Origin: a virus
Lineage: Duplodnaviria > Heunggongvirae > Uroviricota > Caudoviricetes
Virus record (IMG/VR): IMGVR_UViG_2728369593_000014
Span: 1 to 5,481 of that record
DNA length: 5,481 nt
Reading direction: 5' to 3' (one strand)
A program made the translations under genes and the position numbers. This document shows positions 3,334 through 4,829 of this stretch, one piece after another (within the stretch, counting starts at the first letter, position 1; each line of letters starts with the position of its first letter). A model generated the notes under the pieces. It did not search any database. It saw only the letters and a list, made by a program, of their open reading frames with translations, and was not told the DNA's origin.

Positions 3334-3808
3334 TTATGCTGCCGGTGCATTTATCTCCAGCACCAGACTTTCTATCTCAACGCCATACGCTGCATTTTTT
3401 GTAACATCCGTCAGCGTCAGCGCATTCAGTCCCAGTGTCAGACTGTCTTTTATAACCTGGAATGCCGGGCCAGCCACTCCATTCAGTTTCGGAGTAACCG
3501 TGGCACTGCCGGCGGTGAACACCAGCTCCAGCGTCTGCCAGTCGTTACCGTAATCGCCGAACTCCCCCAGCTTCGTGTTTCCGGCTTTCCTGTGATGCAT
3601 CAGATTCACTCTGCCGTCAGTGGTCTGAGTGAAGTACGACATCAGGAACGGATCCCCCCAGCAGCTCATCCAGAATGGCATCCACTTCAGCATCAAGACG
3701 CGCCTCAAGATTCTGGCGGAGTTGCTGTTTCAGTGCGCTTCTGACTTCTTCAGAGCGCAGGACGTCCTTCACTGCTTCAGCAGTGACCAGAGATTTTATT
3801 TCTGACAT
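3334..3808 (-). CDS. 'Gene B': hypothetical protein with a C-terminal ~100-aa domain paralogous to gene A; reading frame split by a 1-nt frameshift in a G6 run
   Basis: N-terminal part (ATG 3808) MSEIKSLVTAEAVKDVLRSEEVRSALKQQLRQNLEARLDAEVDAILDELLG is in one frame; C-terminal part …DPFLMSYFTQTTDGRVNLMHHRKAGNTKLGEFGDYGNDWQTLELVFTAGSATVTPKLNGVAGPAFQVIKDSLTLGLNALTLTDVTKNAAYGVEIESLVLEINAPAA is in the +1 frame. They meet at minus-strand GGGGGG (plus CCCCCC 3655-3660); with G5 the gene would be one ~157-aa ORF. The C-terminal domain aligns with gene A (NxxYYKGNAGQNTKLGSFGAFDNEWHTLGFRFAG…VTP…G…TPF…TDITSGATYPVLIESITVEVNNP). Confidence 0.6.
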
Positions 3809-3845
3809 GGGATTTTCTCGTTGAAAGGTGTTGTTAAGAAAGTTG

Positions 3846-4028
3846 CTACGAAATGAGAGGCTCTTCGGGTTTTGTTCCGGCTGACTGGCTGGCGCTGATT
3901 TTTTCCGCCGCCGCGGCATCAATCTTTTTGCGTATATAGTTCCGGATAACCTTATACCCGCCACTTACCAGATATAACGTGCACACCACCGTGCAGAAAT
4001 ACAATAAAATAAGCTGTACAAATCTCAT
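3846..4028 (-). CDS. Small membrane protein (60 aa): N-terminal TM helix and basic cytoplasmic tail
   Basis: ATG at 4028..4026 preceded by a very strong SD (GGGAGGG, 4-nt spacer); product MRFVQLILLYFCTVVCTLYLVSGGYKVIRNYIRKKIDAAAAEKISASQSAGTKPEEPLIS. Lies between gene A and gene B in the same orientation. Confidence 0.55.
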   Translation of the reverse strand: MRFVQLILLYFCTVVCTLYLVSGGYKVIRNYIRKKIDAAAAEKISASQSAGTKPEEPLIS

Positions 4029-4048
4029 TATCCCTCCCGGTTATTGAT

Positions 4049-4082
4049 ATGGTGTTGACATCGTTAATACCTGTTGGTTAAA
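4049..4082 (+). promoter_or_regulatory. Promoter-like element, module 3: perfect -35 TTGACA, 17-nt spacer, TTAAAAAA
   Basis: TTGACA at 4049-4054; same overall architecture as modules 1 and 2 and followed about 45 nt later by a plus-strand terminator. Confidence 0.25.
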
Positions 4083-4122
4083 AAAGTGTCCTGCATGTTT
4101 TGCTTTGGATATAACGACATTT

Positions 4123-4170
4123 GCCGCCGGTTCTGGCTCCTTGTTTTCCCTGCCCCGGCGGCCTTTTTTT
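4123..4170 (+). terminator. Intrinsic terminator, plus-strand orientation (module 3), abutting the 3' end of minus-strand gene A
   Basis: GCCGCCGG(4123-4130)…CCGGCGGC(4155-4162) with a long 24-nt loop, followed by C-TTTTTTT (4164-4170); the minus-strand side has no U-run. Confidence 0.5.
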
Positions 4171-4175
4171 CCTGC

Positions 4176-4829
4176 TTACGGGTTATTCACTTCCACTGTT
4201 ATACTTTCAATCAGCACCGGATATGTCGCACCGCTAGTGATATCGGTCACGCGCAATTTGTCTGCCGTAAACGTGCCGACCGGTGACTGTGACAGCATGA
4301 ACGGCGTCCCGTCCTTACCATCAATGACCGGCGTCACCTCAATACTGTTGTTACCGGCAAAACGGAAGCCCAGCGTATGCCATTCGTTATCAAATGCGCC
4401 GAATGACCCCAGCTTCGTGTTCTGACCAGCATTTCCCTTGTAGTACATCACATTAAGGTCTGTGGCATCGCTCTGTACGTAAAACGACGCCAGCAGGTTA
4501 TGACCGGCATTACCTTCCAGTGTGACGCCCTGAGGCAGTGAAGAAACCGGCCAGTACAGCGCCAGTGCGTACTGATTAGCTGTCAGTATGCCATCAACTT
4601 TAAAACGACAACTGATAAGCCCGCCCTTCTCCAGCAGGTCTGCGCCATTACCGGCATCATGCTGCATAAACCACGAGGAACTTCCTGTCTGTTTGGTCCA
4701 CCTCAGCGCCTTACCTCCTGCAGCACCTGCATCATCAACTACCAATGCACGCCCTCCTTCAGCTCCCCATCCCTGCGGATTCAGTAAACCACCTGACTCT
4801 GTTGCACGGTAATAAAGCAGCGTTGTCAC
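4176..4829 (-). CDS. 'Gene A': hypothetical 217-aa protein whose C-terminal domain is shared with gene B; possibly fused to the upstream DUF1737-like ORF
   Basis: ORF MTTLLYYRATESGGLLNPQGWGAEGG…YYKGNAGQNTKLGSFGAFDNEWHTLGFRFAGNNSIEVTPVIDGKDGTPFMLSQSPVGTFTADKLRVTDITSGATYPVLIESITVEVNNP; GTG start overlaps the stop of the upstream ORF (GTGA). Gly/Thr/Asn-rich composition with alternating hydrophobics suggests a beta-rich, possibly carbohydrate-binding fold (inference only). Confidence 0.65.
   Translation of the reverse strand: MTTLLYYRATESGGLLNPQGWGAEGGRALVVDDAGAAGGKALRWTKQTGSSSWFMQHDAGNGADLLEKGGLISCRFKVDGILTANQYALALYWPVSSLPQGVTLEGNAGHNLLASFYVQSDATDLNVMYYKGNAGQNTKLGSFGAFDNEWHTLGFRFAGNNSIEVTPVIDGKDGTPFMLSQSPVGTFTADKLRVTDITSGATYPVLIESITVEVNNP

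Follow-up and report, generated by a model that had tools for sequence, protein, structure and literature searches.

What are the two short genes, A and B, that lie upstream of the holin in this prophage? The window, that is the whole stretch of 5,481 nucleotides that was analysed (IMG/VR record IMGVR_UViG_2728369593_000014, positions 1 to 5,481), comes from a lambdoid prophage of E. coli, namely from its late/lysis region, which reads on the minus strand. An earlier note, made from the letters of the sequence, had described the two genes as members of a modular family in which a C-terminal domain of about 100 residues is shared and follows different N-termini, gene B being frameshifted at a run of six G. 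From the evidence presented here it is very probable that the region 3334-5059 is rather a decayed, mosaic nanS-p locus of a lambdoid prophage late operon that arose from two rearrangements.

Identity of the domain shared by genes A and B

In a pairwise BLASTP comparison, residues 109-217 of gene A aligned with residues 18-122 of the gene B 3' ORF with 41 identities over 109 positions (38%, E 6e-19). Moreover, both sequences passed the gathering cut-off of Pfam DUF6645 (PF20350), which is set at 27 bits: gene A reached 233.5 bits over model positions 1-119, and the gene B 3' ORF 37.5 bits over positions 44-115 only. On these scores the similarity that the earlier note had pointed out is real and far above chance, and its remark that the N-terminal parts of A and B are unrelated also stands.

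The Pfam entry DUF6645 corresponds to the lectin-like jelly-roll domain at the C-terminus of NanS-p, a prophage sialate O-acetylesterase. Residues 1-216 of gene A match residues 2-218 of the 218-residue chain of PDB 6YP6, 'NanS-p' (E 5e-97), a structure described as this very domain (Franke et al. 2020, J Struct Biol 212:107596, as cited in PMC8065619 and PMC10462455). In intact NanS-p from related loci (616-647 aa), Pfam places DUF1737 at residues 3-50, SASA at 83-275 and DUF6645 at 494-611, and gene A aligns with positions 421-630 of the 634 positions of PHROG 143. Gene A covers nearly the whole crystallised construct but has no native start, being an internal part of a larger gene. The match of the gene B 3' fragment to 6YP6 is limited to residues 114-218, or one half of the beta-sandwich.

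The labels given earlier to the N-terminal parts have to be reassigned. Because the whole of the gene A ORF aligns to 6YP6, its 'Gly-rich' N-terminus is the first half of the same 217-aa lectin-like domain, which folds independently since the 6YP6 domain was crystallised alone. The 'coiled-coil-like' N-terminus of gene B corresponds to the first 52 codons of a separate gene, DUF826. The likeness of A to B is therefore that of two diverged nanS-p alleles. A protein homologue search with gene A returned mostly partial proteins from contig ends, and the idea of a new modular family was rejected, all homologues found being nanS-p or nanS-p fragments. The suggestion of a ligand- or carbohydrate-binding type of module fared better and was right, the module being the NanS-p lectin-like domain.

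The slot had been likened to the one that holds stx/nanS-p-type cargo, and it is indeed the nanS-p slot because the pieces that fill it are nanS-p. NanS-p of Stx and other lambdoid phages, such as 933W and phi24B (vb_24B_21/gp84), is encoded at this same place, with the Q/tRNA region on one side and the holin on the other, and has the same DUF1737 head and lectin-like C-terminal domain as the pieces in the window. In agreement with the window, nanS-p has been placed upstream of the holin within the late operon, and DUF1378 and DUF826 often follow it (PMC10462455). Nevertheless, NanS-p is a single ORF of about 616-647 aa, whereas in the window its head and its tail are read in different frames, the catalytic SASA domain is missing through a deletion and an extra, 5'-truncated allele fragment lies downstream.

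Two junctions in the locus

The features of the region are listed below. No SASA domain was matched by Pfam in any ORF of the window, and an Rfam scan of the window gave no matches.

Features of the window, from right to left, with the support for each
Feature	Position	Strand	Support or remark
iraM	from 5296	plus	
nanS-p allele 1, 5' remnant	4847..5059	minus	DUF1737 60.9 bits, model 1-53/53
DUF1737 ORF, 77 aa	4826-5059	minus	
Junction 2	4846..4847		L002 4198-5266 (1069 bp) absent; three-way alignment, BLAST coordinates, translations
nanS-p allele 1, 3' remnant	4176..4846	minus	last 223 codons, complete lectin-like domain
Gene A ORF, 217 aa	4176-4829	minus	
DUF1378 gene, intact, 60 aa	3846..4028	minus	Pfam DUF1378 135.7 bits, full length
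DUF826 gene, 5' remnant (gene B N-terminal half)	3653..3808	minus	codons 1-52 of 89
DUF826 ORF	ATG 3808, stop 3617-3619	minus	
Junction 1	3653		L002 (DUF826) homology stops, L003 (nanS-p allele 2 3' end) starts; three-way alignment
nanS-p allele 2, 3' remnant (gene B C-terminal half)	3334..3653	minus	last 106 codons and stop
Gene B 3' ORF as listed	3334-3708	minus	
Class II (P21 S-type) holin	2682..2888	minus	Pfam Phage_holin_2_1 110.8 bits
Left of the holin, in order: opposite-strand ORF, lysozyme, two small ORFs, Rz/Rz1			
IS3-family element, end	1-327		

The upstream part of the region was compared with an intact O157:H7 prophage locus (L002) that reads nanS-p (645 aa), DUF1378, DUF826 and holin. 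By BLAST, window positions 3653-4846 correspond to L002 3004-4197 with 99.8% identity and positions 4847-5044 to L002 5267-5464 with 97.5% identity over 198 nt. The sequence missing between them amounts to about codons 67-422, including the whole SASA catalytic domain, and its endpoints share 1 nt of microhomology (G). A loss of 1069 bp is not divisible by three, and the frame of DUF1737 consequently stops six codons past junction 2: the head reads GTGDGG up to the junction and then QRTGNQ out of frame before TGA at 4826-4828. The native start of this head is the ATG at 5044, the listed ORF beginning at an upstream ATG at 5059, and the DUF1737 domain is complete in codons 1-66.

On the other side of junction 2, the lectin frame opens only a short way upstream of the breakpoint, and its first available start is an internal GTG at 4829, from which gene A is read. 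With respect to the intact O157:H7 allele, gene A carries two differences, both non-synonymous (I/T and Y/H). As far as the alignments tell, gene A is the remnant of a 645-aa nanS-p that underwent an out-of-frame internal loss. The drop in identity to L002 across junction 2 hints that the 5' piece may have come from another allele: whereas the 3' piece reaches 99.8%, the best intact matches of the 5' piece are the O157:H7 allele at 97.5% and an iraM-linked allele at 94%. Junction 2 may accordingly reflect inter-allele recombination instead of a simple deletion. Two side observations on gene A speak against decay: its ORF is open over the entire lectin domain, and the GTG lies in a GTGA that overlaps the stop of the upstream DUF1737 fragment, so that expression by translational coupling would be possible.

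Between genes A and B, DUF1378, a usual neighbour of nanS-p, is annotated as intact at all related loci. The DUF826 piece that follows scored 96.1 bits against Pfam DUF826 (PF05696), above the cut-off, over model positions 1-57 of 75 only. Its first 52 residues are identical to those of intact 89-aa members, which continue as …DELLGG PAAPEPEDG…MMM; the acidic, proline-rich last 37 residues of the intact protein, encoded between nanS-p and the holin, are absent from the window copy and are replaced by 11 out-of-frame residues (SVPDVVLHSDH) before the stop.

At junction 1 the homology switches cleanly, with one shared nucleotide, to another prophage type, L003, whose nanS-p (allele 2, 616 aa) lies directly upstream of the same holin; window positions 1304-3653 correspond to L003 1506-3856 with 97.8% identity (BLAST). 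Of allele 2, the first ~510 codons are absent and what remains encodes the second, C-terminal half of the lectin-like domain. This fragment matches, at 99.4% identity, the 3' end of genes annotated as 'SASA family carbohydrate esterase' in many genomes, was covered to at least 80% by a match in 1393 genomes and shares 95-96% amino acid identity with the nanS-p/yjhS 3' ends of Stx1 phages, phage 434 and H-19B. The holin is the first intact gene downstream of the gene B pieces and is co-linear with the allele 2 donor prophage type. In over 1000 E. coli genomes, the DUF826 part and the nanS-p part belong to two separate genes, each of them intact. Gene B is thus the junction of two genes and not one gene.

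The run of six G on which the earlier reading of gene B was built lies at plus-strand 3654-3659, where it appears as six C, and not one base further at 3655-3660 as had been given; the gene is read on the minus strand. It was correctly noticed that the frame changes between the halves of gene B and that removal of one G yields a continuous 157-aa ORF. In contrast, the claim that gene B is frameshifted there does not hold, as the run belongs to intact DUF826, whose homology ends immediately 3' of it in gene orientation. It forms the codons CTG GGG GGA (Leu50 Gly51 Gly52) of DUF826, and intact DUF826 in L002 has the identical run, GGTCCCCCCAGCAGC, at the same place. The run is accordingly native DUF826 sequence that happens to adjoin the junction rather than a frameshift site. 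A programmed frameshift or phase variation at the run was considered and set aside: besides the native origin of the run and its position next to the junction, passing from DUF826 into the lectin frame takes a +1 shift, a -1 slip meets a stop within four codons, and downstream lies half a domain. The two frames come from two different genes.

Distribution and variation among carriers

The two junctions were surveyed with 80-nt probes spanning each of them in 5426 complete E. coli genomes; the 80-nt junction sequences lie at window positions 3614-3693 and 4807-4886. Both were found, base for base, in the same eight genomes. Neither junction was found without the other among these 5426 genomes or in 50,697 phage records, and none of these 50,697 deposited phage genomes has the combined arrangement. 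In the same way, no DUF826-lectin fusion was found outside the eight near-identical loci. The carriers include O157:H16, O55:H7 and O2:H16 strains as well as food, dog and chicken isolates; MFDS1001074, DEC5B and 98-3133 are among the carrier strains. That the chimera has persisted with hardly a change across serotypes and hosts is an observation against decay, as are the in-frame variant with five G and the PHROGs families described below, but none of these observations amounts to a sign of function.

Over positions 3320-5100, seven copies were aligned, namely that of the window and those of six among the eight carriers. They are near-identical and differ only by two SNPs, one intergenic 1-nt indel, a shortening of the run to five G in one genome and two larger changes. 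The run has six G in seven of the eight carriers; five are found in Z1323CEC0012, in which the 157-aa fusion is consequently in frame. As for the larger changes, strain BA92 has a 264-bp deletion inside gene A and strain D1 carries an IS66 insertion between DUF1378 and the truncated DUF826, and these two events are decay continuing. Downstream of about position 3290, the copies have different holin/lysis modules, and the scar has therefore travelled through further recombination.

All four pieces are called incomplete pseudogenes by PGAP in every genome examined: the head of allele 1 as a 'DUF1737 domain-containing protein, pseudogene, missing C-terminus', gene A as a DUF6645 pseudogene missing its N-terminus, the DUF826 piece as missing its C-terminus and the allele 2 fragment as missing its N-terminus. 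Full-length nanS-p pseudogenes with frameshifts, labelled 'DUF6645 domain-containing protein' by PGAP, are common elsewhere. Such point-frameshifted copies in cryptic prophages represent decay of the same family but have kept their full length, whereas the window combines a large internal deletion with an inter-prophage junction. Split forms also recur in phage annotations, since PHROGs has two families that represent pieces standing alone, phrog_3591 with 265 positions and phrog_2036 with 67. The intact arrangement iraM - nanS-p - DUF1378 - DUF826 - holin is also present, for instance at locus L009.

Competing readings and origin of the chimera

It could be argued that gene B is one gene of about 157 aa, made of a coiled-coil and DUF6645, that is inactivated or phase-varied by slippage of one nucleotide and forms a single modular family with gene A. 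The ORF restored by the loss of one G, and its occurrence in the one carrier with five G, would fit such a gene. This reading is nonetheless highly unlikely given that the homology passes from DUF826 to the nanS-p 3' end exactly at position 3653, that the run of six G is native to the intact 89-aa DUF826, that the C-terminal part is only half of a 218-residue jelly-roll domain and that a +1 shift would be needed. Moreover, the fusion is confined to eight near-identical loci, seven of whose assemblies have six G, so that the five G are either derived or a homopolymer sequencing error. In the earlier note's own terms, the finding that DUF826 (89 aa) and the ends of the 616-aa nanS-p are separate genes elsewhere also refutes gene B as one gene. 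The picture of a modular family with different N-termini gives way to a nanS-p deletion remnant for A and a junction of DUF826 with nanS-p allele 2 for B.

Another possibility is that the split of allele 1 yields two working genes, a stand-alone DUF1737 capsid-decoration protein of 77 aa and a free lectin-like gene A translated by termination-reinitiation at the GTGA overlap. In its favour, nothing of the DUF1737 domain is missing, and the majority of proteins with this domain have no other; in phi24B, according to a recent preprint, the protein is cleaved between its catalytic and lectin domains and DUF1737 is the only part that remains on the capsid after processing (bioRxiv 10.64898/2026.04.10.717836). 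Gene A coincides with the crystallised domain, starting at the very first residue, and a GGGA motif is found 6-9 nt upstream of the GTG. This motif is a weak Shine-Dalgarno sequence, however, both gene A differences from the intact allele change the protein, one copy has already lost part of gene A, the eight copies are too alike to show selection, both pieces are PGAP pseudogenes, and the arrangement is missing from the deposited phage genomes. We therefore consider a working split very improbable. The broader proposal that the locus is still alive, with the decoration protein, a free lectin gene A and a DUF826-half-lectin fusion in the variants with five G, is equally improbable; if it were true, the spread across serotypes would reflect a retained or new function rather than hitch-hiking.

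An assembly artefact, in which reads of two prophages that share repeats were mis-joined, had to be envisaged as nanS-p regions occur up to 15 times per genome, often break assemblies and give rise to many 'partial' proteins. Yet identical junctions are present in eight complete genomes sequenced independently by different laboratories from different hosts and serotypes, and the junctions share only 1 nt, so there is no repeat present to mis-join. Such an artefact can be regarded as practically excluded.

The preferred reading thus remains a decayed, mosaic nanS-p locus, for which we infer the following history. The normal order is tRNAs - iraM - nanS-p (DUF1737, SASA and DUF6645; 616-647 aa) - DUF1378 - DUF826 - holin. 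Allele 1 would have lost 1069 bp between endpoints in its two interdomain linkers, which would have removed SASA, shifted the frame and left the DUF1737 head and the lectin tail, gene A, in different frames. In a separate event, an illegitimate crossover at 1 nt of microhomology between two co-resident or co-infecting lambdoid prophages would have joined codon 52 of DUF826 to codon ~510 of nanS-p allele 2, bringing in the holin-lysozyme module of the donor and leaving half a lectin domain, the 3' half of gene B, as a scar. A promoter and terminator scan of the window gave nothing that points to independent expression of gene A or gene B; all fragments lie in the late operon and would therefore be transcribed on induction. 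The pieces are probably non-functional.

With the SASA domain gone and the reading frame broken, the locus can no longer make a sialate O-acetylesterase. It is a case of ordinary prophage decay of an already-known gene family and not a new modular family, and its main value is correct annotation. The prophage carries nanS-p sequence but would be devoid of the Neu5,9Ac2 esterase activity that helps EHEC to grow on mucin sialic acids. PCR or hybridisation surveys aimed at the 3' (lectin) or 5' (DUF1737) end of nanS-p would miscount the locus as one or two functional copies. Finally, it neatly illustrates how ORFs that mimic domain shuffling arise when lambdoid prophages resident in one host recombine illegitimately.

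Variation among copies of the chimera

The chimera, in which a remnant of the DUF826 gene (DUF826') is joined to the 3' end of the second nanS-p (prophage sialate O-acetylesterase) allele, varies between strains. In strain Z1323CEC0012 (locus L005, 1846-1866, corresponding to window 3654-3659), the homopolymer consists of G5 instead of G6, which gives an in-frame DUF826'-lectin fusion of 157 aa and may reflect either real slippage or a sequencing error. Strain BA92 (L007) carries a 264-bp deletion within gene A, the lectin-domain remnant of nanS-p allele 1 (window equivalent ~4352-4615), and in strain D1 (L008) an IS66-family (ISCro1-like) element is inserted between DUF1378 and DUF826' (window equivalent ~3810). 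Both this deletion and this insertion are further decay of the chimera.

Surroundings of the nanS-p remnants

Mutual similarity of the chimeric prophages ends between ~3150 and 3290, adjoining a GC-rich hairpin. The latter lies directly past the stop codon of nanS-p allele 2. At the right end is iraM, whose product is an anti-adaptor that stabilises RpoS; a probe spanning iraM and the nanS-p 5' end (window 4847-5481) had matches over 80% or more of its length in 1382 of the 5426 complete E. coli genomes. At the left end, an IS3-family element is inserted downstream of Rz. This element is missing from L001, the closest relative, where a small hypothetical gene occupies the site.

Features flanking the nanS-p remnants and within the lysis cassette
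Feature	Window position	Strand	Remarks
IS3-family element, 3' end	1-327		96% DNA identity to the IS1203/IS629-type transposase in L002 (intact O157:H7 locus)
Two small hydrophobic ORFs	974-1335	-	between lysozyme and Rz
Opposite-strand ORF	2112-2426	+	between holin and lysozyme; phrog_1853 match (family label: unknown function)
GC-rich hairpin AGCCAGCG…CGCTGGCT	3296-3331		flanked by a T-run on the plus strand
iraM	5296-5481, extending past the window	+	between phage tRNA genes and nanS-p, opposite in strand to nanS-p

Small ORFs of the lysis cassette

Holin and lysozyme are usually neighbours but are here separated by the opposite-strand ORF, which looks like a moron within the cassette. It is enclosed by an AT-rich stretch (~2030-2680) and appears as a 90-aa hypothetical protein in the PGAP annotation. 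Since only positions 57-158 of the 159 in phrog_1853 are covered, it may be 5'-truncated or mis-started. The hydrophobic ORFs, of about 43 and 60 aa by PGAP, belong to phrog_4906 and phrog_1115 (family labels: unknown function) and may encode lysis-cassette membrane proteins.

Split nanS-p genes in phage families

PHROGs has one family for a stand-alone lectin-domain ORF, phrog_3591 (265 positions), and another for a stand-alone short DUF1737 ORF, phrog_2036 (67 positions). Splitting of nanS-p is therefore a recurrent feature of deposited phage genomes; the split genes may be pseudogenes or genuine two-gene forms.
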